Assembly: GCA_018900835.1 (NCBI GenBank)
Contig: JAHIFQ010000009.1
Coordinates: forward strand, 1,624 to 65,623
Length of the DNA stretch: 64,000 nucleotides
Direction: 5' to 3'
Origin: Patescibacteria group bacterium
GTDB taxonomy: Bacteria > Patescibacteriota > Minisyncoccia > Minisyncoccales > PEYH01
The position numbers and the translations under genes are program-made. Below are positions 14,571 through 62,738 of this stretch, one piece after another. Below the pieces are notes generated by a model. It was not told where the DNA came from. It saw only the letters and a list, made by a program, of their open reading frames with translations, and searched no databases. Positions within the stretch are counted from its first letter, which is position 1. Every line of letters begins with the position of its first letter.

Positions 14571-14600
14571 CAAGCGACCACTTCGTGGTCTAAATTAAAG

Positions 14601-14656
14601 GTTAAAAATGAAAAGTTAAAAATAAAAGATAAAATTAGAAATTAGAAATTAATATT
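14601..14656 (+). repeat. Heptamer array gttaaaa/atgaaaa/gttaaaa/ataaaag/ataaaat/tagaaat/tagaaat/taatatt
   Basis: Read directly. It contains a 23-mer also found inside tsaD (antisense of 44501-44556) and a 23-mer shared with 44981-45003. Confidence 0.75.
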
Positions 14657-14661
14657 ATTAT

Positions 14662-14849: not shown

Positions 14850-15911
14850 ATGACAAAAAATAAACGATTTGACCAACGATTATCTCAGATTCCAGCTAAG
14901 ATATGGTCAAAAATAACACAGATTGATGAATTAAAAGGACAATGGATTGCTGGCGCACGATTAAGTCCGCAGATTTTAGGTCGCTTGAAGCAGTCGGTTT
15001 TGATTACCTCCACTGGCGCCTCTACTCGTATTGAGGGCGCTCGTCTTTCTGATGAGGATGTAGAAAAATTGATGCGAGGTATTGATATTCAAAAATTCAC
15101 TGATAGGGATAAGCAAGAAGTGAAAGGTTATTTTGAATTGCTCGAAAATATTTTTAATTCTTGGAAATCTCTTAAATTTTCAGAAAATACTATTAAGCAT
15201 TTTCACAAAGAGCTTCTTAAGTATGTCCAAAAGGATGAGATTCACCGAGGTGATTACAAAAAAGAAGAAAACAAAGTGCATATGATTAATGCAGTTGGCG
15301 AATCTGTTGGCGATCTTTTTGATACTGCGCCGGCATATCTCACGCCGAAAGAAATGCAGGAATTGATTGAGTGGACTCAATGCGTACTGAATGAAAAAAA
15401 ATATCATCCACTTCTGGTTATTGGTAGTTTTTTGGTTGATTTTTTACAAATACATCCATTTCAAGATGGCAATGGTCGGCTTTCCCGTGTTTTGACCAAC
15501 CTTCTTTTATTAAAAGAGGGCTATTTATATGTGCCCTATATTTCTCATGAGAAATTAGTCGAAGACAATAAGCCGGAATATTATCTTGCGCTTCGTCAAA
15601 GTCAGAAAACATTTAAGACAAAACGCGAAAACATTATTCCGTGGCTCGATTTCTTTTTAACTATTTTCCTTAAACAATCGCAGATGGCTGTTGAGTTATT
15701 ATCTAAAGAAAACATAGAAAAACTTCTTTCAAGGAAACAACTTGCAGTATGGCAGTATTTGCAAGAAGTGGACGAAGTAAGTCCCGGCGAAATCGCTAAA
15801 AAAGCAAAAATTGCTCGTCCTACAGTTAATCAAGTGATGGATAGACTTTTGCGCCTTAAGAAAATCGAACGCATTGGCCTTGGCCGAAGCACAAGGTATA
15901 GGAAGATATAA
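14850..15911 (+). CDS. Fic/DOC family protein (probable AMPylase) with N-terminal inhibitory motif and C-terminal winged-helix domain
   Basis: Fic core HPFQDGNGRLSR. Upstream STRIEG matches the (S/T)xxxE(G/N) auto-inhibition motif. The C-terminal PGEIAKKAKIARPTVNQVMDRL is HTH-like. Confidence 0.88.
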   Translation: MTKNKRFDQRLSQIPAKIWSKITQIDELKGQWIAGARLSPQILGRLKQSVLITSTGASTRIEGARLSDEDVEKLMRGIDIQKFTDRDKQEVKGYFELLENIFNSWKSLKFSENTIKHFHKELLKYVQKDEIHRGDYKKEENKVHMINAVGESVGDLFDTAPAYLTPKEMQELIEWTQCVLNEKKYHPLLVIGSFLVDFLQIHPFQDGNGRLSRVLTNLLLLKEGYLYVPYISHEKLVEDNKPEYYLALRQSQKTFKTKRENIIPWLDFFLTIFLKQSQMAVELLSKENIEKLLSRKQLAVWQYLQEVDEVSPGEIAKKAKIARPTVNQVMDRLLRLKKIERIGLGRSTRYRKI

Positions 15912-18734: not shown

Positions 18735-19943
18735 ATGAAAATTGATTCTAAAAAAATAGACGAGGTTCTGACAAGGAGCGTTGAGCAAATTGTCGACAGA
18801 GATCACTTCAGTAAAGCCCTTGCTTCGGGTAAAAAATTGAGAATTAAGCATGGCATTGACCCAACTGGAGACAAGATTCATATTGGCAGAGCCATCCAGC
18901 TCTGGAAATTAAAAGCATTTCAGGATTTAGGGCATAAAATCGTTCTGATTATCGGCGACTTTACTGCTCGCATCGGCGACCCATCAGATAAGCCAGAAGG
19001 CAGAAAAGGACTTAAAGACGAGGAGATAAAAAAGAATGTCAAATCATATTCAGACCAAATTGGGAAAATACTTGATTTAAAAAAGACCGAAATTAGATAT
19101 AACAGCGAATGGTTTAATAAGATGCCTCTTGGTGATTTTTTGCATTTGTCTGGCAATTTTTCTGTTCAACAATTAGTTCAAAGAAGAAATTTCCACGAAA
19201 GATGGAAAAAAGGAGAGCCAATTTCATTGAAAGAGATTTGCTATCCCCTTTTGCAGGGCTATGATTCAGTAGCAGTCAAGGCAGATATTGAATTGGGCGG
19301 TTATGACCAGCTTTTTAATCTTAATGCTGGAAGAGATATTCAGCGATTATTTGGAATGTATCCGCAAGATATAATGACCTTAAAAATGCTTTCAGGGCTT
19401 GATGGCAGAAAGATGTCCACTAGTTGGGGTAATGTGATTAATATTGTTGATAAACCGGAAGATATGTATGGGAAATTGATGTCTATGCGGGATGAAATGA
19501 TTTTTGATTATTTTGAGCTTTGCACGCTTCTTGCTGAAAAAGAATTAAGCGAAATTAAAAGAGAACTTAAGAATAAGAATATTAATCCAAGAGACATTAA
19601 AGCCAGATTAGCCAGAGAGATTGTTTCTATGTATCACAGCGAAAAATTAGCGCAAAAAGCAGGGCAAGAGTTTGATAAAATATTCAAAGAGAAAAGAATG
19701 CCCTCCAAGATGCCAGTATTTTTTACTCCAAAGCCGAGTTATCCAATAGTTGAGCTTTTATTTCATCTAGGACTAGCCAGCTCTAAGGGGGAGGGCAAGA
19801 GATTGGTGCTCCAGGGAGGAGTTAGAGTTGATTCTAATGTAATAAAAGATTTTAAACAGGAAATAAAAGTGAGGGATGAAATGATTATTCAAGTTGGCAA
19901 AAGAAAATTTGCTAAGCTAATTACCCATGACATCAGATGCTAA
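18735..19943 (+). CDS. tyrS: Tyrosyl-tRNA synthetase
   Basis: HIGH-type HIGR, GDFTARIGDPSDK, ELGGYDQLFN, KMSTS loop, C-terminal S4-like domain (GKRLVLQGGVRVD). ATG 18735 chosen because the track start 18654 lies inside tRNA-Ala. Confidence 0.88.
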   Translation: MKIDSKKIDEVLTRSVEQIVDRDHFSKALASGKKLRIKHGIDPTGDKIHIGRAIQLWKLKAFQDLGHKIVLIIGDFTARIGDPSDKPEGRKGLKDEEIKKNVKSYSDQIGKILDLKKTEIRYNSEWFNKMPLGDFLHLSGNFSVQQLVQRRNFHERWKKGEPISLKEICYPLLQGYDSVAVKADIELGGYDQLFNLNAGRDIQRLFGMYPQDIMTLKMLSGLDGRKMSTSWGNVINIVDKPEDMYGKLMSMRDEMIFDYFELCTLLAEKELSEIKRELKNKNINPRDIKARLAREIVSMYHSEKLAQKAGQEFDKIFKEKRMPSKMPVFFTPKPSYPIVELLFHLGLASSKGEGKRLVLQGGVRVDSNVIKDFKQEIKVRDEMIIQVGKRKFAKLITHDIRC

Positions 19944-20907
19944 TAAAGAAAGAGTCGCCATTGTTGGCGCAGGAATTATTGGACTTTATTTGGCTTGGCG
20001 CTTAAGCCAAAAGGGCCATAGCGTCACGGTGTTTGAGAAAAAGAGCAATATTGGAGGCAAGCCCTGCACTGCCCTGATATCAGAAAGGATTAAAGAGTAT
20101 TTGCCAATAAGCGATAGAGTTTATCAAGGAAGAGTAGAATCAATTTTAGTTCATTTTCCCAAGAAAGACATCAGAATTAAAGCGCGCCCTGCTTATCTTG
20201 TTTTTAATAGAGATGCCCTGGAGAACTTTGTCTATGATTTAGCAAAACAAGCAGGCGCAGAGATAGTTTTTAATAAAGAAATCAAGGAAATTCCAAAGGG
20301 TTTCACAAAGATTATTGGATGCGACGGAGCCCTATCGCAGACAAGGCAATTATTATCTATACCAATTCCTGTTTGTCGTTTGGGAATACAATTTTTTGTT
20401 GATAGGGCTGATAGGACTGATATGGCCGGAGAATCTATTGAGGTTTGGCCTCAAAAATTCGCTTGTCCTCCGAAATACGGCTTTGCGTGGAAAGTTCTCA
20501 AGAAAGACAACATTGAATATGGAATTATTGGCCCAACCAAAGAGGCGAAGAATGGGCTTGATGTATTTTTGACAAAACAAGAAATATATTTAAATGAAGG
20601 TGATTTTAAGGCAGCGATGATTCCTCAAGGATTGCGGTTGCCAAAATCAGACAAGATTACTTTGCTTGGTGATTCCGCTGGCATGACCAAGCCGACAACT
20701 GGTGGGGGGATTATTTGGGGATTTAAAGCTGGCGATATTTTAGCAGATTGTTTTCCTGATTTTAAAAAATATCGAAGAAAGACCAAAAGATTTTTTATTC
20801 TCAAGATTTTAAAAGGCAGAATAGCAGTTTCTGCTAGTTATTTCTTGGGCAATTATTTCCCCTTCCTGCTCCCTAAAAAAATATCAATTGACCCAGATTT
20901 ATTTTAA
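19927..20907 (+). CDS. FAD-dependent oxidoreductase, geranylgeranyl-reductase-like
   Basis: Rossmann VAIVGAGIIGLYLA...VFEKK and GCDGALSQ motif. Confidence 0.7.
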   Translation: MTSDANKERVAIVGAGIIGLYLAWRLSQKGHSVTVFEKKSNIGGKPCTALISERIKEYLPISDRVYQGRVESILVHFPKKDIRIKARPAYLVFNRDALENFVYDLAKQAGAEIVFNKEIKEIPKGFTKIIGCDGALSQTRQLLSIPIPVCRLGIQFFVDRADRTDMAGESIEVWPQKFACPPKYGFAWKVLKKDNIEYGIIGPTKEAKNGLDVFLTKQEIYLNEGDFKAAMIPQGLRLPKSDKITLLGDSAGMTKPTTGGGIIWGFKAGDILADCFPDFKKYRRKTKRFFILKILKGRIAVSASYFLGNYFPFLLPKKISIDPDLF

Positions 20908-20928
20908 ATCTGTCATCTGTATTTTAGG

Positions 20929-20963
20929 AATAGTAAATAATCAATAATAAATAATAAATAATG
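20929..20963 (+). repeat. Heptamer array aatagta/aataatc/aataata/aataata/aataatg
   Basis: Read directly. It ends 4 nt before tRNA-Ser(CGA). Confidence 0.65.
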
Positions 20964-20967
20964 ACTT

Positions 20968-21056
20968 GGAGAGGTACCGAAGTTCGGCTATAACGGCACG
21001 GTTTCGAAAACCGTCGGCCCCTAAAGGGCGCGTGGGTTCAAATCCCACCCTCTCCG
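20968..21056 (+). tRNA. tRNA-Ser (anticodon CGA), long variable arm
   Basis: GGAGAGG..CCTCTCC acceptor, ACGGT TTCGAAA ACCGT, variable arm cggcccctaaagggcgc, T loop TTCAAAT. Confidence 0.85.
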
Positions 21057-21083
21057 CATAAATTTTTGCCTTTACAAAAATTT

Positions 21084-21118
21084 GAGTAGTTAGTAATTAG
21101 TAATTAGTAGTTAGGACA
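21084..21118 (+). repeat. Heptamer array gagtagt/tagtaat/tagtaat/tagtagt/taggaca
   Basis: Read directly. gtagttagg (21105-21113 approx) pairs with cctaactac about 40 nt downstream. Confidence 0.65.
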
Positions 21119-21197
21119 AGGAAGTAGATTTTTATTCAAACAAAAATTTATTCCTAACTACAAATTACACACACAAATTACGATTTCAAATAAAGGA

Positions 21198-21220
21198 AAA
21201 AGCCGCATGAGGCGGTTTTT
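21198..21220 (+). terminator. Rho-independent terminator
   Basis: aaagccgc atgag gcggtttt, with the U-tract merging into the stem. Confidence 0.55.
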
Positions 21221-21222
21221 GC

Positions 21223-21251
21223 TTGAAAAATAGCGGGATTAGGTGTATTAT
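21223..21251 (+). promoter_or_regulatory. Putative promoter of infB
   Basis: ttgaaa, 17 nt, tattat, located 27 nt upstream of the ATG. Confidence 0.4.
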
Positions 21252-43500: not shown

Positions 43501-43563
43501 TTAATCAATAATGATTAATCATTTATCGCTAATCACTTATCATTGGTCATTGATGATTAATCA
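43501..43563 (+). repeat. Heptamer array ttaatca/ataatga/ttaatca/tttatcg/ctaatca/cttatca/ttggtca/ttgatga/ttaatca
   Basis: Read directly. It fills the spacer between the prsW-like start and the tsaD stop (which lies inside the last unit). Confidence 0.75.
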
Positions 43564-44771
43564 GCGATGCGGAGATTTGGTTCTGCTTTGATTTTATTCC
43601 AATTTATCGCTTTTTTATTTGGGATTCGCAGATACGCAGACATTGCTATCATCGCCGCGTTATCTGTGCAGTATTTGCCACTTGAAACAATTAGGTTAGC
43701 TTCTGGACTGTATTCTTGAACTTTTTTTTCAAATTGTATTCTTAATTCTTTATTCGCTGCCACGCCTCCGCCGAGCATAATTGTTTTTACTCTATAATCC
43801 CTCGCTGCTTTAAGGGTTTTCTTGATTAACACATCGATAATTGCTTGTTGGGCTTCTTTTGCAATCAGGCGGATATATTCTTTTGATTTTTTTATTTTAC
43901 TGTTTCTTTTTATATAATCATACAATACTGATGTTTTAAGTCCAGAAAAACTAAAATCATAATCCTTGGTATTGAGCATTGGCCTCGGCAGTTTTATTGA
44001 TAATTTATCATTGATCATTGATGATTGCTTGGCTTGTTGGGCAATGACTGGTCCGCCAGGGTAGCCAAGACCAAGGATTCTTGCTATTTTATCAAATGCT
44101 TCGCCAGCAGCATCATCTCTTGTCTCTCCCAATATCTTATATTGCCCAATTTTTTTTACTAAGATAATCTGCGTATGCCCACCGCTTACTATCAAACAAA
44201 TCGCAGGCAATTTAATTTTATTTTCTGTTTTCTGTTTTACGTTTTGCGTTTTGCGCTTTGCGCTTTCGCCAATTGGCGTTAGCCAATTGGCGAGTAGGTG
44301 TCCCTCAATATGATTCACTGGAATTATTGGTACTCCCCACCAATAGGCGAGCGCTTTGGCGAAATTAACCCCAGTCCAAAGACAGGGGTCAAGGCCAGGG
44401 CCTACAGTCACTGCGATATAATCAATCTCCGGCTTCTGATATTTTCCCAAAAACTTCTCTGTTTTATCGTAAAGGAATTTTTCTCTTTCTAATATATTTT
44501 TTAATTTTAGATTTTTAACTGTAATTTTTAACTTTTCATTTTTAACTTTTAACTTAAGCATATTTGTTGCCCTTAAACCTTGTTCTAAAAGCGGGACAAG
44601 ATTTTTTTGGTGTTCCCTCCGCGCAAAAGATGGATACACTCCTCCCCATTTTTTATGAATCTCCTTTTGCGATGAGATAAGATTAGACATTAATTTAAAA
44701 TCTTTGGCAGATGGTTCTGCCAAAGCAATACAAGTATCATCGCAGGATGTTTCTATTGCTAAAATTTTCAT
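43557..44771 (-). CDS. tsaD: tRNA N6-adenosine threonylcarbamoyltransferase TsaD, carrying two low-complexity insertions
   Basis: MKILAIETSCDDT, VTVGPGL, VNHIEGHLLA, IVSGGHTQII, GETRDDAAGEAFDK, GYPGGP motifs. The extra segments LKLKVKNEKLKITVKNLKLKN and ESAKRKTQNVKQKTENK are encoded by heptamer arrays. Confidence 0.92.
   Translation of the reverse strand: MKILAIETSCDDTCIALAEPSAKDFKLMSNLISSQKEIHKKWGGVYPSFARREHQKNLVPLLEQGLRATNMLKLKVKNEKLKITVKNLKLKNILEREKFLYDKTEKFLGKYQKPEIDYIAVTVGPGLDPCLWTGVNFAKALAYWWGVPIIPVNHIEGHLLANWLTPIGESAKRKTQNVKQKTENKIKLPAICLIVSGGHTQIILVKKIGQYKILGETRDDAAGEAFDKIARILGLGYPGGPVIAQQAKQSSMINDKLSIKLPRPMLNTKDYDFSFSGLKTSVLYDYIKRNSKIKKSKEYIRLIAKEAQQAIIDVLIKKTLKAARDYRVKTIMLGGGVAANKELRIQFEKKVQEYSPEANLIVSSGKYCTDNAAMIAMSAYLRIPNKKAINWNKIKAEPNLRIAD
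44221..44270 (+). repeat. Seven-unit heptamer array ttttctg/ttttctg/ttttacg/ttttgcg/ttttgcg/ctttgcg/ctttcgc inside the tsaD CDS
   Basis: Read directly. The antisense strand translates to ESAKRKTQNVKQKTEN within TsaD. Confidence 0.8.
44501..44556 (+). repeat. Eight-unit heptamer array ttaattt/tagattt/ttaactg/taatttt/taacttt/tcatttt/taacttt/taactta inside the tsaD CDS
   Basis: Its reverse complement contains gttaaaaatgaaaagttaaaaat, a 23-nt exact match to intergenic 14601-14623. Confidence 0.8.
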
Positions 44772-44844
44772 TGCTTACTTAGAATATCAAACCCCTTGAA
44801 TTTTTACAACTTTTTGTCTATTATAAAGCCACGCTTGGAAGTCC

Positions 44845-45005
44845 CAATTTTCAATTTACAATTTTCAATGAAATTACAAATCTTAATTTCCAAACCAAAT
44901 TTTGAAAATTAGTGCTTGGTATTTATTTGGGATTTGAAAATTAAAAATTTGATTCAAAATTCGAGTTTCATTCAAAATTCAAAATTAGAAATTAAAAATT
45001 AATTC
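44845..45005 (+). repeat. 161-nt spacer readable as 23 consecutive heptamers in one register (caatttt/caattta/caatttt/caatgaa ... ttcaaaa/ttcaaaa/ttagaaa/ttaaaaa/ttaattc)
   Basis: Read directly. The middle units are degenerate. It ends 1 nt before tRNA-Glu. Confidence 0.6.
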
Positions 45006-45091: not shown

Positions 45092-46678
45092 ATGCCTGAT
45101 AAATATTATCTAAGAATTGCTTTTGCGTCTGATTTGAAAAAAACAAGCGAGCGGTTATTATACCGCTTTTTAGAAATGCTGCCTGGCATAATAACATGGA
45201 CAACCCTTCTCGGCGCAATTCTGTTGTCTTATCTTAAGCCCATATTGATATCCATTTTTATTATCATTTTTGTAATATATTGGCTTTCCAAGACAATATA
45301 TTTTTCGTTTCACCTAAGAGTAAGTTATCAAAAAATGAAGCAAAACATAGAAATTGACTGGTTAGGCAAGTTGAACAAGCTTGGTACACCCTCCAACGGA
45401 CTGCCGATTCATCACTGGAATGAAATATACCATTTAATAGTTCTGCCAATGTATAAGGAGCCGTATGAAGTTGTAAGAGAATCCATAAAATCGCTTTTAA
45501 GAACTGATTATCCCAAAGACAAAATGATTGTTATTTTAGCCCAAGAAGAGAGGGCTGGAAATGATTTCAATAATGAATTGTCCAAGAAGATAGGTCAGGA
45601 ATTTAAAAATAGTTTTTATCAATTTTTTATTACTGTCCACCCAAAGGACTTACCCGGGGAAATAGCAGCAAAGTCCTCAAATGAAACATGGGCAGCCAAG
45701 AAGGCAAAGGAGCTAATATCTGTGCTCAATATTCCTTTTGAAAAAGTCATTTTTTCATCTTTTGACATAGACACAGTTGTTTCTGCCGATTACTTCGGCT
45801 GTCTTACTCATCACTATTTAACTACCCCAAAGCCATTGCGAACCAGTTTTCAACCAATCCCTTTGTTTTTAAACAATGTCTGGCAAGCCCCTGGAATATC
45901 AAGGGTATTTTCTTTTTCTTCAAGCTTTTGGCATTTGATTAATCAGCAAAGACCGGAAAAATTAATAACTTTTTCATCGCACTCAATGCCGTTCAAGGCA
46001 TTAGTTGATGTTGGTTTTAAGCAAACAGATGTTGTTTCAGATGATTCCCGGATTTTTTGGCAATGCCTTTTATTTTATGATGGCGATTATCGCGCAGAGC
46101 CGTTGAATTGTTCCATATCCATGGATGCCAATGCAGCAGAAACGCTTCGCAGAACTATTGTTCATATGTATAAACAACAAAGAAGGTGGGCTTATGGCGC
46201 AGGAGAAATTCCTTATTTTATTTTCGGATTTTTAAAGAATAAAAAAATATCTCTCAAAAGAAAGATTGCCTTAGCATTTGAAGCTATAGAGGGGCACTGG
46301 AATTGGGCTTGCGCCCCCATCCTTATTTTCGCCTTGGGCTGGCTTCCGATTTATCTTGGTGGCTCGGAATTTACCCAAACGATTTTTTCATACAATCTGC
46401 CAAAAATACTCGGCAGAATTCTTACAATTTCTATGCTTGGCTTGATTATGTCTATGTATTACACTTTTTATCTTTTGCCCCCAAAACCAAACACCAAGAA
46501 ACAGAAATTAAATATTTTGTGGGCCTGTGTGCAATGGATATTGGTGCCCTTTACAATGATATTTTTTACTGCTTTTCCAGCCATAGACGCGCAGACAAGA
46601 TTGCTTTTGGGGAAATATATGGGATTCTGGCCAACCCCGAAGCACAGGAAAGTGCAAAGCGTAAAACAAAAAGCGTAA
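45092..46678 (+). CDS. Membrane-embedded processive GT2 glycosyltransferase (cellulose/chitin-synthase-like, QxxRW type)
   Basis: LPMYKEPYEVV, DKMIVILAQEE, SFDIDT and QQRRWAYGA (Q-x-x-R-W), flanked by N- and C-terminal TM bundles. Confidence 0.7.
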   Translation: MPDKYYLRIAFASDLKKTSERLLYRFLEMLPGIITWTTLLGAILLSYLKPILISIFIIIFVIYWLSKTIYFSFHLRVSYQKMKQNIEIDWLGKLNKLGTPSNGLPIHHWNEIYHLIVLPMYKEPYEVVRESIKSLLRTDYPKDKMIVILAQEERAGNDFNNELSKKIGQEFKNSFYQFFITVHPKDLPGEIAAKSSNETWAAKKAKELISVLNIPFEKVIFSSFDIDTVVSADYFGCLTHHYLTTPKPLRTSFQPIPLFLNNVWQAPGISRVFSFSSSFWHLINQQRPEKLITFSSHSMPFKALVDVGFKQTDVVSDDSRIFWQCLLFYDGDYRAEPLNCSISMDANAAETLRRTIVHMYKQQRRWAYGAGEIPYFIFGFLKNKKISLKRKIALAFEAIEGHWNWACAPILIFALGWLPIYLGGSEFTQTIFSYNLPKILGRILTISMLGLIMSMYYTFYLLPPKPNTKKQKLNILWACVQWILVPFTMIFFTAFPAIDAQTRLLLGKYMGFWPTPKHRKVQSVKQKA

Positions 46679-46687
46679 AACAACAAT
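46653..46687 (-). repeat. Heptamer array (reads tgcaaag/cgtaaaa/caaaaag/cgtaaaa/caacaat on +) covering the last codons and stop of the GT2 gene
   Basis: Read directly. It encodes ...VQSVKQKA*. Confidence 0.7.
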
Positions 46688-46719
46688 TTAAAATTTAAAC
46701 TTTTATTTTTGCACTGTTA

Positions 46720-46754
46720 TTTTGCGCTTTACACTTTACGCTTTACGCTTTATT
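46720..46754 (+). repeat. Heptamer array ttttgcg/ctttaca/ctttacg/ctttacg/ctttatt, inverted relative to 46653-46687
   Basis: Read directly. It abuts the recG stop (46750-46752). The two arrays can pair (aaagcgtaaa / tttacgcttt). Confidence 0.7.
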
Positions 46755-48882
46755 CCAGGTGAATATTTCTGCGGAAAAAAACCAATCTCTGTCTTAAGAA
46801 GGGGAGATTTTTTAGTTCTGGGTCGCGCGTTAATATATCCTGCGCTGTTTCCCTGGCTTTTTCTACCAAAGAGAAATCATCCAAAGCATTCATCGCAATA
46901 TCAGGCAGACCCCATTGTTTTGTTCCAAGGAATTGTCCAGGCCCCCTTATTTTCAAATCTTTTTCCGCCAACTTAAGCCCATTGTCTATGGTTGCCAACG
47001 CTTTGAGTCGGGCATAGGCATTTTTAGACCGGGTATTACAGAATAACAGGCAATATGCTTGGTCGCCTTGTCTGCCTATCCTGCCTCTGAATTGATGTAG
47101 TTGCGACAAGCCGAATCTTTCCGCTCCTTCAATAACCATCACTGTTGCGTTGGGGATATCTATTCCCACCTCTATAACAGAAGTGGAAACCAGAATATCT
47201 ATTTTCTGCCTCCTGAAATCCTTCATTATTTTATTCTTATCTGTGTTCGGCATTTTGCCGTGGAGCATTGCGATTTTAAATTGAGGGAACACTTCTTTAG
47301 ATAGCCGTTGATATTCTTCCTTGACTGCTTTCACTTCTGACCAGCCCGACTTATCTTCTTTTCCTTCTTCTAATTCTTTTTCCTCAATCCGAGGACAAAT
47401 CACGAACGCCTGTCTGCCCCTGCCCATCTCTTCTTCAATTAATTTGTAGATTTTTTTCCTATCTTTTTGGGGGACTAAAAGGGTTTTTACTTTCCTTTGC
47501 CCTTTTGGCATTTGGTCAATCAGAGATAAATCCAAATCACCGTAAACTGTCAGAGCCAAAGTTCGGGGGATAGGAGTGGCGGTCATTGATAAAAGATGTG
47601 GAATAATTGTTTTCCCAGCGCGATGGAGCTTGGCACGCTGTTCCACGCCGAATCGGTGTTGTTCGTCTAAAATCACAAGTCCTAATTTTAGAAATTTTAC
47701 CTTATCTTGAATTAAAGAATGGGTGCCGATTAAAATATCTATATCTCCTTTTAATGTATCCTCTAAAAGTTTTTTTCTGGAAATTTCCACTGCCTGGCGT
47801 TTAAGTTTTTTGGAAATAAATTTGTCTGTTTTTGAAGTGAGCAAACCGATATTTATTTTACAATCTTGCAGCAACGCGCCAATGGTTTCAAAATGTTGTT
47901 TTGAAAGAATCTCTGTGGGCGCCATAAAAGCAACTTGATTCCCGGACTTTATCACATTTAAACTTGCCATTGTAGCTACAACTGTTTTACCAGAGCCGAC
48001 ATCTCCTTGGAGTAGGCGGGTCATTGGTCTGTTCTTTTCCATATCTTTTAATATTCTCCAAGCAATTTTTTTCTGTGAATCAGTGAGCTTAAATGGAAGA
48101 GATTTTACGAATCGCTGAATAATCTCTACCTTAATAGGCATAGGAACGGTCTTGAGCCGGGAGATTTCCTCTTTCTTGCCTAATACAAATAATTCCAGTA
48201 AAAATAATTCTTCAAAAGCAAATCTGTGCTTTGCTTTTTCCGCCATTTTAGCAGAGCTTGGGAAATGTATTTCAGAGATAGCTTTTTTAATGGCTAAAAG
48301 ATTGTTTTCTTTTATAATATTCTCTGGCAAAGTTTCTGGAACTTTTTCGGAAAACTCTTTTAGCAATGGCCTGATGATGAATCTTAACCACCTTGAAGAA
48401 ACGCCCCTGATTTCAGGATAAACAGGGATTATCCTACCAGTATGAGTGAATTCATTTTGTTTGCCATTTGCTTCAGACCATATTTTTTCGTAAACAGGAT
48501 TGGAGAAATAAGCGCCTTCTTTGCCAATAGAGATTTTTCCTGCCAGACAAACAATATCTCCGGACTTAATAGATTGAATTAAATATGGTTGATTAAACCA
48601 AGTCGCTTGCATTGTTCCGCTTGAATCCTTTATCACTGCTTTTGTAAGGGAAAATCTTTTTCTGAATGTGGTTTGGTTTTCAATCTTTAAAACCTCGCCC
48701 TTGATACAGGCGGTCTCGTTTATTTTCAGTTGGGATATTTTTTTGAGATTGGAAAAATCCTCGTAGCGGTGGGGGAAATAAAAAAGAAGGTCACGAACAG
48801 TCCTAACCCCCATTTTTTCAAGTTTTTTTATATACACAGGTCCGATTTTCTGAAGCTCTCCTACTGGAGTGGATAATTGCAT
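46750..48882 (-). CDS. recG: ATP-dependent DNA helicase RecG
   Basis: N-terminal wedge/OB domain, helicase motif I GDVGSGKT, DEQHRFG (motif II), SATPIPRTL, C-terminal helicase lobe QLHQFRGRIGRQ. Confidence 0.93.
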   Translation of the reverse strand: MQLSTPVGELQKIGPVYIKKLEKMGVRTVRDLLFYFPHRYEDFSNLKKISQLKINETACIKGEVLKIENQTTFRKRFSLTKAVIKDSSGTMQATWFNQPYLIQSIKSGDIVCLAGKISIGKEGAYFSNPVYEKIWSEANGKQNEFTHTGRIIPVYPEIRGVSSRWLRFIIRPLLKEFSEKVPETLPENIIKENNLLAIKKAISEIHFPSSAKMAEKAKHRFAFEELFLLELFVLGKKEEISRLKTVPMPIKVEIIQRFVKSLPFKLTDSQKKIAWRILKDMEKNRPMTRLLQGDVGSGKTVVATMASLNVIKSGNQVAFMAPTEILSKQHFETIGALLQDCKINIGLLTSKTDKFISKKLKRQAVEISRKKLLEDTLKGDIDILIGTHSLIQDKVKFLKLGLVILDEQHRFGVEQRAKLHRAGKTIIPHLLSMTATPIPRTLALTVYGDLDLSLIDQMPKGQRKVKTLLVPQKDRKKIYKLIEEEMGRGRQAFVICPRIEEKELEEGKEDKSGWSEVKAVKEEYQRLSKEVFPQFKIAMLHGKMPNTDKNKIMKDFRRQKIDILVSTSVIEVGIDIPNATVMVIEGAERFGLSQLHQFRGRIGRQGDQAYCLLFCNTRSKNAYARLKALATIDNGLKLAEKDLKIRGPGQFLGTKQWGLPDIAMNALDDFSLVEKARETAQDILTRDPELKNLPFLRQRLVFFRRNIHLE

Positions 48883-53812: not shown

Positions 53813-54337
53813 ATGAAATACGCTATTATCATTGTCGCTGTGAGCATATTGATTTCCCTGACATTGGGCATTTTCTTAGTTTGGCCTCAATACAGGGGCT
53901 TTAGAGATATACAGAGTCAGTTGAATCAGAAAGAATTGCAGTTGGAAAATCAGAATAAATATATTCAATCACTGAAGGTCGCTAAAAAAGAAATGGATGA
54001 GCGGTCGGATATAGTTTCTAAAATTGAGAGCGCTCTCCCCATTGGTTCTGACGCGCCTTCTTTGCTTGAGTTCCTGCAAAACGCATCTGCCTCATCTGGC
54101 ATTAGTTTGGACAATATTAGCTTGGAAAAGGCCTCTCCTGGCGACGAAAAAGAGAGGGTTAAGAGCCATTTTTTCAGCGCAGAATTGTCTGGTTCTTATT
54201 TTTCATTTAAAAATTTCTTATTTGCCCTTGAGACGAGTTCCCGCTTGATAGAGGTGGAGCAAACAAATTTTTCTGTGCCATTAACAGAAGGGCAATCAGC
54301 ATTGATTAAAATTAGAGCAAGAATCAGTTCGTATTAA
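53813..54337 (+). CDS. PilO-like bitopic protein, set 2
   Basis: N-terminal TM, coiled coil QLNQKELQLENQNKYIQSL, alpha/beta C-terminus. Confidence 0.5.
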   Translation: MKYAIIIVAVSILISLTLGIFLVWPQYRGFRDIQSQLNQKELQLENQNKYIQSLKVAKKEMDERSDIVSKIESALPIGSDAPSLLEFLQNASASSGISLDNISLEKASPGDEKERVKSHFFSAELSGSYFSFKNFLFALETSSRLIEVEQTNFSVPLTEGQSALIKIRARISSY

Positions 54338-54376
54338 TAACTAATAACTGATAACTGATTAATGATTAATGATTAA
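54335..54376 (+). repeat. Heptamer array taataac/taataac/tgataac/tgattaa/tgattaa/tgattaa
   Basis: Read directly. It starts at the TAA stop and ends 3 nt before the next ATG. Confidence 0.85.
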
Positions 54377-54379
54377 TTT

Positions 54380-54667
54380 ATGGCTATAGTATTTTACGAA
54401 AAAAGGAAGAAAGAAATTTATATAGCAATTGCTGGTTTGGCATTGATAGCCATTCTTGTTTTTGTTTTAATTAAAATTAAAGGAGGCGGGTTTATTGTGG
54501 GAGAATCAGCGTTGTCTCTTCCTGTAGTCAAGGAGGTTAAGATAGATTTTCAAAAAATAGAGGAGGAAATTTGGAACGACCTAAAATCCTTTACGCCGAT
54601 TTCTCCTCTTTCAGAAGGCATTGGGAGGGAGAATCCTTTTGCCCCTGCGCTTCCTGTGTCAAATTGA
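54380..54667 (+). CDS. Small single-TM protein of pilus set 2
   Basis: TM IYIAIAGLALIAILVFVLI. Positional counterpart of 14070..14390. Confidence 0.4.
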   Translation: MAIVFYEKRKKEIYIAIAGLALIAILVFVLIKIKGGGFIVGESALSLPVVKEVKIDFQKIEEEIWNDLKSFTPISPLSEGIGRENPFAPALPVSN

Positions 54668-60642: not shown

Positions 60643-60671
60643 AATGTTTAGAGGTTCAACCTCTAAACATT
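60643..60671 (+). other. Perfect 12-bp hairpin aatgtttagagg ttcaa cctctaaacatt covering the first ATG of track ORF 60644
   Basis: Read directly. It argues that pilD starts at the next in-frame ATG (60686). Confidence 0.6.
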
Positions 60672-60685
60672 GTAATGATTTATTA

Positions 60686-61531
60686 ATGATTATTTATTAT
60701 TTGTTAATTTTTATATTCGGTCTTATAGTGGGTTCATTTTTGAACTGCGTGATTTATCGGTTGGAGAAAAAGGAGAGTTTTTTACATGGCAGGTCATTTT
60801 GTCCTAATTGCAAGCATTCTTTAGCTTGGTATGACCTGATTCCATTATTGAGTTTTATTCTTCTGCGCCGAAAATGCCGTTATTGCCATAAATCAATCTC
60901 TTGGCAATATCCAATTATAGAAACAGCAACAGGGGCGCTATTTCTGCTAATTTTCAATTTCTCCGCCCAAGGCGGGCAGGCAATTTTCAATGAAATCTCA
61001 ATTTTCAACAGTTCGGCCATGAGCTCACTGCCGAATGGTTTTCAATTTTTAAACTTTGTCTATTATTTATTGATTGCCTGTTTCCTCATTGTTATTTTTG
61101 TTTATGACTTGAAGCATTTCATAATCTTGGACAAGGTCTTGATTCCAGCAATCGCCATATCTTTGATATATAGGTTAGTCGGCGCCTTGTTTTTGAATAA
61201 TCAATTATCAATTATTAATTATCTGCTTTCTGCTTTTGGCGCTGCTGGTTTTTTCCTTTTGATATATTTGATCTCCAAGGGCAAGTGGCTTGGATTTGCA
61301 GATGTTAAATTGGTAATACTTTTGGCAATGATTTTGGGCTGGCCTAAAATAGCCCTGTCTTTGTTTTTAAGTTTTTTCATCGGTGCTATAATAGGTATAG
61401 GACTGATAGTTTTCTCCGGGAAAAAGCTTAAAAGCGAAGTTCCGTTTGCCCCATTTTTAATAACCGGAACATTGATTGCCTTATTTTGGGGTCAGCATCT
61501 CATTGATTGGTATTCCGCTTTGATTTTCTGA
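60686..61531 (+). CDS. pilD: Prepilin peptidase/N-methyltransferase PilD (A24 family) with a repeat-derived insertion
   Basis: GSFLNCVIYRL, CPNC...CRYC zinc motif, YPIIETATGALF, FVYDLKHFIILD and GFADVKL catalytic Asp regions. The segment FNFSAQGGQAIFNEISIFN is encoded by repeat DNA. Confidence 0.88.
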   Translation: MIIYYLLIFIFGLIVGSFLNCVIYRLEKKESFLHGRSFCPNCKHSLAWYDLIPLLSFILLRRKCRYCHKSISWQYPIIETATGALFLLIFNFSAQGGQAIFNEISIFNSSAMSSLPNGFQFLNFVYYLLIACFLIVIFVYDLKHFIILDKVLIPAIAISLIYRLVGALFLNNQLSIINYLLSAFGAAGFFLLIYLISKGKWLGFADVKLVILLAMILGWPKIALSLFLSFFIGAIIGIGLIVFSGKKLKSEVPFAPFLITGTLIALFWGQHLIDWYSALIF

Positions 61532-61605: not shown

Positions 61606-62145
61606 TATTGTTCAACAAAGAGTAAGGAGACAGGCATGACCTTGGTTGAGGCCTTGATTACCGTTGCGATAGTAGGAATTTTATTGGCAACAAGCTTTTT
61701 GGCTTATCGGCCAAGAGGGCAGGAGCTTGCCCTGCAGAGGTCTGCTTTCAAGATTGCATCTGATATTGAGATTGTTAGAGAAATGGCAATGTCAGCGCGG
61801 AAAAATGTTGGCGGAGAAATTCCTATTGGCGGATACGGTATTTATTTTGACATTGCAAATCCATCGTCTTATATTCTATTCGCTGATTCAGACGCAAGCA
61901 AGAATAGAAAATCAGACGGTTCCGAAGATATTAAAACATTAGACATAGAAGACGGAATAGTGTTAAGTATTTTGTCGCCCTCTAATCCAGTAAACATCAC
62001 ATTTGTTTCTCCTTCCCCTGATGTTTTTTTACAAGGAGGCGCCACAGTGGGACAAATAGATATAACCGTAGCAATACAAGCGGATATTTCTAAGACAAAA
62101 ATTATCTCTATAAACAAGGCGGGATTGATTTCCACTGACCAATGA
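61594..62145 (+). CDS. Minor pilin, GspH/FimT-like
   Basis: Leader MINNYCSTKSKETG then MTLVEALITVAIVGILLA (Glu at +5). 183 aa. Confidence 0.7.
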   Translation: MINNYCSTKSKETGMTLVEALITVAIVGILLATSFLAYRPRGQELALQRSAFKIASDIEIVREMAMSARKNVGGEIPIGGYGIYFDIANPSSYILFADSDASKNRKSDGSEDIKTLDIEDGIVLSILSPSNPVNITFVSPSPDVFLQGGATVGQIDITVAIQADISKTKIISINKAGLISTDQ

Positions 62146-62219
62146 TCACTAATTAATGATTGCTGATTACTGATTAATAATCACTGATAAATGATTAATA
62201 ATAAATGATTAATAATAAC
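62143..62219 (+). repeat. Eleven-unit heptamer array tgatcac/taattaa/tgattgc/tgattac/tgattaa/taatcac/tgataaa/tgattaa/taataaa/tgattaa/taataac
   Basis: Read directly. It begins at the TGA stop and contains the next gene's ATG and its MINNN codons. Confidence 0.85.
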
Positions 62220-62738
62220 GGATTTACATTGATAGAAATGCTTATCACCGTCTCTGTGGTGAGCGTTGGCATTGTTGGCGTTTTTATGTCGGTCCAACAA
62301 GGGATAATTGCAATTGATTACGCTAACTCCCGATTTACCGCAGCCCTACTTGCTCAAGAGGGAGTAGAAATTATTAAAAGCATTAGAGACACGAATCTTT
62401 TGGAATATAATTATGTTTCCACTGGCACTGCTTGGAACGAGGGAATTAGAACAGGAGATATTGAAGCACAGTATACAGACCCTCAATTAACAGAACCCGC
62501 CATGACACAACCAATATGTAGTCCAAGTTGTGACCCTGATGATATCAGGTTCCTTAAAAAATCCATTACAGGATTTTACAATTACGATACAGGGGATGAT
62601 AGCAGATTTAAAAGATTGATTCATATAGAATCACCGAATGCTGACCAAATGGATGCGACTATTACTGTTTTTTGGAACAAGAGGGGCGGAGGGTATTATA
62701 GTATTTCTCTGCTTCAGCATTTATATAATTGGTGGTAG
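62205..62738 (+). CDS. Minor pilin, PilV-like
   Basis: MINNNGFTLIEMLITVSVVSVGIVGVFMSVQQG. Confidence 0.7.
   Translation: MINNNGFTLIEMLITVSVVSVGIVGVFMSVQQGIIAIDYANSRFTAALLAQEGVEIIKSIRDTNLLEYNYVSTGTAWNEGIRTGDIEAQYTDPQLTEPAMTQPICSPSCDPDDIRFLKKSITGFYNYDTGDDSRFKRLIHIESPNADQMDATITVFWNKRGGGYYSISLLQHLYNWW

Follow-up and report, generated by a model that had tools for sequence, protein, structure and literature searches.

Heptanucleotide arrays within tsaD of a Patescibacteria genome: putative in-frame members of a lineage-wide repeat family that slips and is copied

The window analysed here is a stretch of 64,000 nt from a Patescibacteria group bacterium (assembly GCA_018900835.1, contig JAHIFQ010000009.1, positions 1,624 to 65,623 of the forward strand); coordinates are those of the window unless a relative's locus is named. 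On its minus strand lies tsaD, whose coding sequence contains three tandem arrays of 7-nt units read in frame with the rest of the protein. A first-pass annotation, made from the sequence letters, had drawn attention to two of these arrays and to a match between one of them and a distant intergenic array. The features on which the argument turns are as follows.

43557-44771, minus strand: tsaD coding sequence, intact, 404 amino acids (aa), with the catalytic motifs HIEGH, SGGHT and CTDNAAM kept.
44495-44560, minus strand: array 1 (site A), GTTAAAA-type, about nine units including one of 6 nt; encodes LKLKVKNEKLKITVKNLKLKN (aa 72-92).
44216-44270, minus strand: array 2 (site B), CGCAAAA, CGTAAAA and CAGAAAA units; encodes SAKRKTQNVKQKTEN (aa 168-184).
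43994-44030, minus strand: array 3 (site C), CAATCAT and CAATGAT units; encodes QSSMINDKLSI (aa 248-260).
14590-14657, plus strand: array in the spacer between the genes for tRNA-Arg(TCT) and tRNA-His, homologous to array 1 and holding the exact 23-mer discussed below.

Profile search and modelling assign the product of the 43557-44771 open reading frame (ORF) to the TsaD/Kae1/Qri7 family (t6A transferase), with a predicted two-lobe ASKHA fold like that of solved TsaD proteins. It matches the Pfam TsaD profile (PF00814) with E = 6.9e-77 and 259 bits, against a cut-off of 24.8, and an identical protein, named TsaD of Patescibacteria bacterium, is present in public data on an ENA metagenome contig. 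In a 33-sequence TsaD alignment the metal-binding HxxxH residues H154 and H158, D370, S196-T200 (SGGHT) and G124-G126 (GPG) are invariant. An AlphaFold (AF2) model of the protein, based on 33 orthologues, has a mean predicted local distance difference test score (pLDDT) of 82.4, and its top Foldseek matches are the TsaD/YgjD structures 3zet_B and 4ydu_A (E about 1e-24, TM-score 0.81 on the target).

All three arrays are called with period 7 by Tandem Repeats Finder (TRF). The calls are 44499-44555 for array 1 (8.3 copies, 73% matches), the overlapping 44221-44238 (100% matches) and 44234-44266 (92%) for array 2, and 43996-44027 (4.6 copies) for array 3, which is also a lag-7 segment, defined here by 21-nt windows with at least 16 self-matches. 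Array lengths are 37-66 nt with fuzzy ends, and the longest perfect tracts in the window's tsaD amount to 2-2.6 units. Both of the peptides given by the first-pass annotation are present in the translation, that of array 2, ESAKRKTQNVKQKTEN, at aa 168-183. Its two arrays are thus real and in frame, although it missed array 3, the arrays that adjoin both ends of the gene, the segment of about 43 aa that surrounds array 1, and the spread of such arrays through the genome and the lineage.

A unit of 7 nt has consequences for the reading frame: the peptide is therefore read in three frames, only steps of three units keep the frame, and slippage by a single unit breaks the gene. Repeats of the form (GCAAAAC)n and (CAGAAAA)n are free of stops and read AKRKTQN and QKTENRK, and the array 2 peptide is the three-frame reading of the former followed by the latter. 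SMIND in array 3 is likewise a reading of (CAATGAT)n. Pure (GTTAAAA)n, the consensus of array 1, has a stop every 7 codons in all frames. Within array 1 the two most deviant units, ATGAAAA and ATCTAAA, are exactly those in which the consensus phase would read AGT TAA, and the 6-nt unit resets the phase. The deviant units appear to be signs of selection for an open reading frame.

When the protein is aligned to the solved TsaDs of Aquifex (8iey), Thermotoga (6nak) and E. coli, aa 69-111 have no counterpart, aa 165-182 (array 2) fall opposite a gap, and site C amounts to five extra residues. The earlier placement of arrays 1 and 2 in regions that are short loops in other TsaDs is borne out by this alignment. 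Array 2 is modelled as a disordered loop, with pLDDT below 50 over aa 166-183. In the region of array 1 the model shows coil at aa 69-82 and a helix of moderate confidence at aa 83-93. Array 1 is therefore the variable N-terminal half of a larger clade-specific insertion of about 43 aa (aa 69-111), the C-terminal half of which (ILEREKFLYDKTEKFLGKYQKP) is conserved and non-repetitive. Going by TsaD-TsaB structures, array 1 would exit where helix alpha1 ends C-terminally, beside the bundle of helices to which TsaB binds.

Natural alleles in which units have been lost are found in relatives. They were recognised as short tsaD products on long contigs among cluster members of close relatives. In two alleles of the L085 lineage (L125 and L128), exactly one AAAACGA unit of 7 nt is missing from the array 2 homologue when compared with the intact allele, which leaves tsaD as two ORFs, of 190 and 214 aa, the second starting at a GTG that overlaps the end of the first. 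These alleles are otherwise 98.7-99.6% identical to intact ones; they come from two samples, differ from one another at 42 positions over 3.6 kb, and carry no further lesions in the downstream half of tsaD. In a third allele, from a Nealsonbacteria lineage (L124), exactly 14 nt, or two units, are missing at site C, splitting the gene into ORFs of 254 and 137 aa, and the allele is otherwise identical to its intact counterpart. Counted at contig level, split alleles occupy two contigs of the P0002 lineage and one of the P0031 lineage, alongside intact alleles. Thus, the expectation that gain or loss of a unit would shift the frame is matched by naturally occurring alleles. Judged from these alleles, the arrays appear to change copy number in whole-unit steps, and those in tsaD would remain fragile, the loss of one or two units being enough to split the gene. 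They are usually stable nonetheless, as at least 24 contigs encode one intact TsaD (P0004) identically.

Comparison with orthologues points to an old origin. In orthologues of 78-80% identity (L085, L086 and L082), arrays 1 and 2 are found at the same positions and with the same length, and differ by point substitutions only. Array 2 is still recognisable at the DNA level in two orthologues of 59-65% identity (L131 and L132), and array 3 in one of 65% (L131). Since orthologues of 59-80% identity share them, the in-gene arrays are old and not recent insertions. The first-pass annotation's word 'inserted' should therefore not be read as recent insertion. Array 2 is absent from some closer orthologues (P0005 and P0006), and two short orthologues (P0097 and P0119) lack the arrays while keeping the catalytic motifs. 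Homologous sequence without repeats was not what the orthologues carried at these positions: close ones are repetitive, and distant ones have either other heptamer arrays or nothing.

The arrays that flank the gene behave differently. Their length and unit differ between the window, L085 and L082, and the spacer between tsaD and the tRNA-Glu gene holds TAATCA-type units of other lengths in relatives, while the promoter-like region near tsaD is conserved. From these alignments it appears that in-gene arrays hold their length, whereas the intergenic arrays beside tsaD turn over quickly, in line with the earlier proposal that copy number within the gene must be constrained.

The same loops of TsaD are occupied repeatedly. 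At the DNA level, array sites in 37 tsaD genes of the Candidate Phyla Radiation (CPR) fall at aa 17-29, 71-90, 168-189, 248-260, 294-306 and 347-364 (query numbering), site C being the most often occupied among orthologues. The units at these recurrent sites are wholly different between genomes, for example ACAAATT, AAATCCG, AAAAATC and AATACAG. A search for 7-aa periodicity at the protein level found four segments only in 119 orthologues and was too insensitive, so that the DNA-level analysis was used instead. Across loci of close Patescibacteria relatives, lag-7 arrays occur at 3-16 per 10 kb, and they are present in other CPR groups. The non-CPR loci, which made up most of the matches listed in the contig scan with the TsaD alignment, served only as negative controls; among these matches they have no lag-7 arrays, bar 1-4 segments in a few loci, mostly of Chloroflexota. 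Other lags are near zero in all fetched loci. Of 51 in-ORF arrays across loci, 45 are A-rich on the coding strand, and 34 perfect arrays comprise 24 canonical units.

A link between coding and non-coding arrays is provided by array 1. The 23-mer GTTAAAAATGAAAAGTTAAAAAT has exactly two copies in the window, at 14601-14623 on the plus strand, in the tRNA-Arg/tRNA-His spacer, and at 44524-44546 on the minus strand, in array 1; none was expected in 100 shuffles. The match had been reported by the first-pass annotation, and it extends into a local alignment of about 68 nt at about 81% identity, the top-scoring pair among all arrays of the window. The spacer copy shares the stop-avoiding ATGAAAA unit of array 1. 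Both copies predate the split between the genome of the window and that of a relative with the same spacer (L129), for which PilM was used as the synteny anchor. The spacer itself (14572-14661; L129 8643-8733) begins with a perfect GACCAC-UUCG-GUGGUC hairpin, which is followed by the A-rich array.

Blocks shared between arrays are not confined to this pair. Exact 14-mers or longer are shared by 16% of array pairs within a genome and by 1.5% of pairs between genomes. In L092, 70 nt at about 97% identity are common to the gene for a 766-aa protein and to site A of TsaD; in L012, 38 identical nt lie at two loci 7.6 kb apart; in L094, 32 nt are common to two sites in RecG; and in L016 and L106, blocks with the same order of variant units are common to TsaD and other proteins. 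That one repeat occurs in both coding and non-coding DNA, as was claimed from the 23-mer pair, is therefore general. Blocks that repeat the same order of variant units at several sites would not come from independent slippage, and it follows that arrays are probably copied too. These shared blocks lead us to infer that arrays are copied ectopically from one to another, through gene conversion or template switching, and array 1 with the tRNA spacer would be an older example.

Within the window, period 7 stands apart from other periods. Lag-7 segments number 20, against 0.3 in dinucleotide shuffles (an enrichment of about 60-fold), while the other lags from 3 to 13 give 0-4 segments each; lag 14 follows lag 7. 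On a crude gene map in which 89% of the window is coding, 13 of 18 arrays are non-coding, though only 11% of the window is. Intergenic arrays often span the whole spacer from stop to start codon, or abut the 5' end of a tRNA gene. Of the five arrays in genes, three are those of tsaD and two lie in a prepilin peptidase gene. Many unit families are present and no unit, or small set of units, dominates; neighbouring units change stepwise, as from TTTTCTG to TTTTACG to TTTTGCG to CTTTGCG. Those that surround tsaD, or are related by unit to the arrays within it, include the following.

43501-43563: array in the tsaD/prsW spacer, nine TTAATCA units that reach from the stop codon of tsaD to the start codon of prsW; of the unit family of array 3 (TRF).
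44839-45004: arrays in the divergent tsaD/tRNA-Glu spacer, with sub-arrays at 44839-44872 and 44967-45004.
46656-46757: GCGTAAA/AAAGCGT-type arrays between convergent genes; of the unit family of array 2 (TRF, lag-7).

Arrays therefore adjoin tsaD at both ends (43501-43563 and 44839-44872). In the divergent spacer, the A-rich strand is the minus strand at 44839-44872, on the side of tsaD, and the plus strand at 44967-45004, which abuts tRNA-Glu; the two form an inverted arrangement, and array orientation therefore follows the direction of transcription. As to RNA, a scan of the window against Rfam found tRNAs only, and the arrays match no known RNA family. Array 1 has a predicted minimum free energy of 0 kcal/mol (z = +1.9), is less structured than every shuffle and is predicted to be fully unstructured. 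Arrays 2 and 3 showed no significant RNA structure relative to shuffles, and no pairs of arms span the arrays.

Collectively, these results favour a reading in which the tsaD segments are in-frame members of a lineage-wide Patescibacteria family of A-rich, non-palindromic heptanucleotide arrays, about 30-70 bp long, that both slip and are copied. We put the probability of this reading at roughly 0.7. Replication slippage with a preference for a 7-nt register would create arrays and alter their length, and ectopic copying from one array to another, through gene conversion or template switching, would spread or overwrite them. Within genes they would persist only where a surface loop is permissive, and only if A-rich in orientation, free of stops and of a net length divisible by three. 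Survival in permissive loops would explain why the same five or six loops of TsaD are occupied across the phylum by different units, and ectopic copying would explain why sites persist while their units change. The three arrays of this tsaD are old and degenerate. Their products, loops rich in Lys, Asn and Gln, are in all likelihood tolerated, and might be of slight use in the binding of RNA or of partner proteins.

Several points weigh against this reading. The split tsaD alleles are known from assembled contigs and not from reads, and other genes were surveyed with crude ORF calls in loci centred on tsaD. No target-site duplications, defined ends or associated enzyme were seen for the proposed copying. 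In L129, the tRNA-Arg/tRNA-His spacer matches that of the window at 96% identity, 23-mer included, while proteins of the two genomes share only 78-82% identity and their synonymous sites are near saturation; the spacer is more conserved between the two than the promoter and terminator regions of the operon. Synonymous sites in the tsaD arrays have diverged about half as much as those elsewhere in the gene (pS 0.34 against 0.66, in a small sample of about 50 codons). Codons for the same amino acid in the three arrays differ in 8 cases, against 15.2 expected, while non-synonymous divergence (dN) is equal in the arrays and in the rest of the gene. The conserved spacer and the reduced synonymous divergence hint at a constraint at the nucleotide or RNA level, which purely neutral slippage would not predict; function at that level is one possible source of the low divergence, and homogenisation by conversion another.

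Such a constraint would accord with a selected function for the arrays, whether as an on/off or split/fused switch of tsaD, as Lys-rich loops that bind tRNA or a partner, or as a protein-binding site in RNA or DNA that is shared with the tRNA spacer. The same one-unit deletion is found on two diverged haplotypes, with the downstream half intact and a GTG overlapping the upstream stop, and the sequences of arrays 2 and 3 are kept in orthologues of 59-65% identity. Nevertheless, perfect tracts of only 2-3 units are short for a switch, and P0005, P0006, P0097 and P0119 keep their catalytic motifs although they lack arrays. The model shows array 2 as disordered, dN does not drop within the arrays relative to the rest of the gene, and no known RNA family is matched. 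A selected function is, on balance, unlikely.

It might be supposed instead that each array arose purely locally, by in-place slippage from chance seeds, and that the likeness between arrays reflects convergence on favoured A-rich units with no copying. The diversity of units across genomes is what such an origin would give (24 canonical units among 34 perfect arrays), gradual change between neighbouring units is typical of evolution in place, and deletions in unit steps are directly observed. What it accounts for poorly is that blocks of 32-70 nt recur at unrelated sites of one genome with their different variant units in an unchanged order, and that sharing is about 10 times higher within genomes than between them. 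A wholly local origin therefore seems quite unlikely.

Dispersed copies in coding and non-coding DNA, some in frame in surface loops of TsaD, RecG and prepilin peptidase, also invite comparison with the Rickettsia palindromic elements (RPEs), a parallel that the first-pass annotation had drawn. RPEs are palindromic elements of 100-150 bp that belong to defined families. Ogata and colleagues (2000) reportedly described them as dispersed both in non-coding DNA and, in frame, within conserved protein genes, to whose products they add surface segments. In both cases related copies are thus found in non-coding DNA and, in frame, at the protein surface of conserved genes, and in this outcome the parallel stands. 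It does not extend to structure, since the arrays lack palindromes and fall well short of RPEs in length: they are tandem heptamers of 30-70 bp with no hairpin potential, and they also change by slippage of units. For the same reasons, it is very unlikely that dedicated machinery inserts cassettes like those of RPEs or miniature inverted-repeat transposable elements, the tsaD arrays being insertion events. The predicted folding energy of array 1 RNA is 0 kcal/mol, the arrays showed neither terminal inverted repeats nor target duplications, no transposase or similar gene was found near them, and sites that are conserved while their units differ fit overwriting better than fresh insertion. Lastly, the notion that an AT-rich genome (38% G+C) and Lys-rich peptides mimic a 7-nt period, by chance or through protein heptads, has effectively no probability left, being refuted by the shuffles (0.3 segments against 20, with 0-4 at other lags), by deletions that are exact multiples of 7 nt (7 and 14), and by peptides that exactly match three-frame heptamer readings, where a protein heptad would give a period of 21 nt.

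A bolder version of the slippage-and-copying reading would have Patescibacteria carry an undescribed class of dispersed heptamer cassettes, copied or gene-converted between spacers and surface loops of conserved proteins, which systematically generate the lineage-specific insertions of CPR housekeeping proteins, could by single-unit slippage split and perhaps re-fuse essential genes such as tsaD, and are in some cases, such as the tRNA spacer and the tsaD arrays, under nucleotide-level selection. This we regard as tentative, and rather doubtful as a whole.

The arrays share features with several known systems. In the contingency loci of host-adapted bacteria, units of 1-5 nt form long perfect tracts within surface or virulence genes, and these give reversible frameshifts at high frequency. 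As there, a change in the number of units within an ORF shifts the frame, and frameshifted alleles are seen in natural populations (here, on contigs); the arrays differ in having perfect tracts of two to three 7-nt units, in a housekeeping gene for tRNA modification. An excess of heptanucleotides among prokaryotic simple sequence repeats, and the idea that they arise by polymerase slippage, are established for other phyla (Mrazek 2007, as cited in PMC4679880 and PMC4692102). The heptanucleotide long simple sequence repeats, and the short tandemly repeated repetitive sequences of cyanobacteria, resemble the present arrays in being tandem, with units of 7 nt, in an over-representation of period 7 and in a mostly intergenic location; their length and sequence vary between close relatives, and polymerase slippage has been proposed. 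The cyanobacterial repeats have few defined units, whereas the Patescibacteria arrays are short and have many A-rich units. A sizeable part of the latter, unlike either class, is in frame in conserved housekeeping proteins at recurrent loops, and blocks are copied between sites.

The TAACTGA direct repeats of Beggiatoaceae, Cyanobacteria and Bacteroidetes are intergenic, with one dominant unit, and the cases within ORFs are mostly at protein ends or in hypothetical proteins (MacGregor 2015, PMC4679880). They too lie a few nucleotides upstream of start codons, have stops in all frames in one orientation, and are occasionally found within ORFs in the other. The Patescibacteria units are diverse by comparison, and their in-ORF arrays occupy internal loops of TsaD, RecG and prepilin peptidase. 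Tandem repeats of Borgs create disordered protein regions, and the units within ORFs are all divisible by three (PMC9879509). Those repeats are likewise pervasive in one type of genome, A-biased, about half within ORFs, and encode disorder-promoting residues; the 7-nt unit of the present arrays is not divisible by three. A literature search of incomplete coverage found no report of heptamer or heptanucleotide repeats in Patescibacteria or the CPR. The novel elements are the lineage that hosts the arrays, the repeated use of the same loops of conserved enzymes by different heptamers, the copying of blocks and the natural split tsaD alleles.

If this reading is correct, the arrays would provide a concrete source, at the DNA level, for many of the lineage-specific insertions in universal proteins of the CPR. 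Repeats whose unit is not divisible by three would be seen to persist for long within an essential gene, read in three frames, and the split alleles would be natural examples of one-unit slippage dividing a universal enzyme at a surface loop. The arrays would also offer a tractable system in which to study the bacterial preference for period 7, and the copying of arrays without recognisable features of mobile elements. In annotation, a housekeeping gene that appears split or 'partial' in a CPR metagenome bin may be a slippage allele and not a true loss.

Arrays are also found in other genes and spacers. RecG orthologues encoded next to tsaD in relatives (L094 1101-3239; L096 1093-3213; L090; L095; L003) have up to three in-frame heptamer arrays each, and the RecG gene of the window (46750-48882) has none at the threshold used. 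The prepilin peptidase gene (60644-61531, plus strand; Pfam A24_N_bact and Peptidase_A24) holds in-frame arrays at 60682-60709 and 61193-61224. The first of these has the rare T-rich orientation and encodes the hydrophobic LLMIIYYLLIFIF near the N-terminus of the membrane protein. Between the convergent genes listed above, the array at 46656-46683 also encodes the C-terminal tail of the upstream 528-aa protein (45092-46678). This tail ends in PKHRKVQSVKQKA before the stop codon, where the orthologue (L082 8091-8129) has PKHRKIINN; after the common PKHRK, the endings are VQSVKQKA and IINN, and the array determines the position of the stop codon. TAACTGA/TGATTAA-type arrays at 54330-54383 and 62141-62224 bridge a stop codon to the next start codon within an operon, TRF placing the TAACTGA units of the former at 54337-54377. 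Such units hold TGA, TAA and ATG, and so provide stops in all frames and overlapping stop-start motifs, like the TAACTGA repeats of Beggiatoaceae.

In some orthologues, inserts that are not heptamer arrays occupy the same loops of TsaD in frame. At site C of tsaD in L082 (aa 249-258 of P0004), a short GC-rich palindrome, CCCGCCCGAGGCGGGC, encodes TRPRRA, and a GC-rich palindrome similar to this insert is found upstream of tRNA-Arg in L130 (8310-8350). P0008 and P0030 have longer GC-rich inserts after residue 20, in the N-terminal region. These GC-rich inserts look more like RPEs, or like repetitive extragenic palindromes, than the heptamer arrays do. A peptide of the form KNHAS(F/L)xSAEP is inserted at two different loops of TsaD, at aa 315-330 in P0012 and at aa 199-215 in P0015, which suggests another dispersed element able to land in frame.

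At the tRNA site, the gene next to tRNA-His was rejected as a synteny anchor, since it belongs to the Fic family and has counterparts of 85-90% identity in many lineages. It lies directly downstream of tRNA-His (14850-15911, plus strand), and its relatives are on very many contigs, including some labelled Omnitrophota and various CPR groups; in L129 and L130 its place is taken by other genes. Judging by this distribution, it is probably horizontally mobile cargo at the tRNA site. The L082 locus also holds, at 19078-21230, a GyrA gene with an intein (Pfam Intein_splicing between the DNA_topoisoIV halves).

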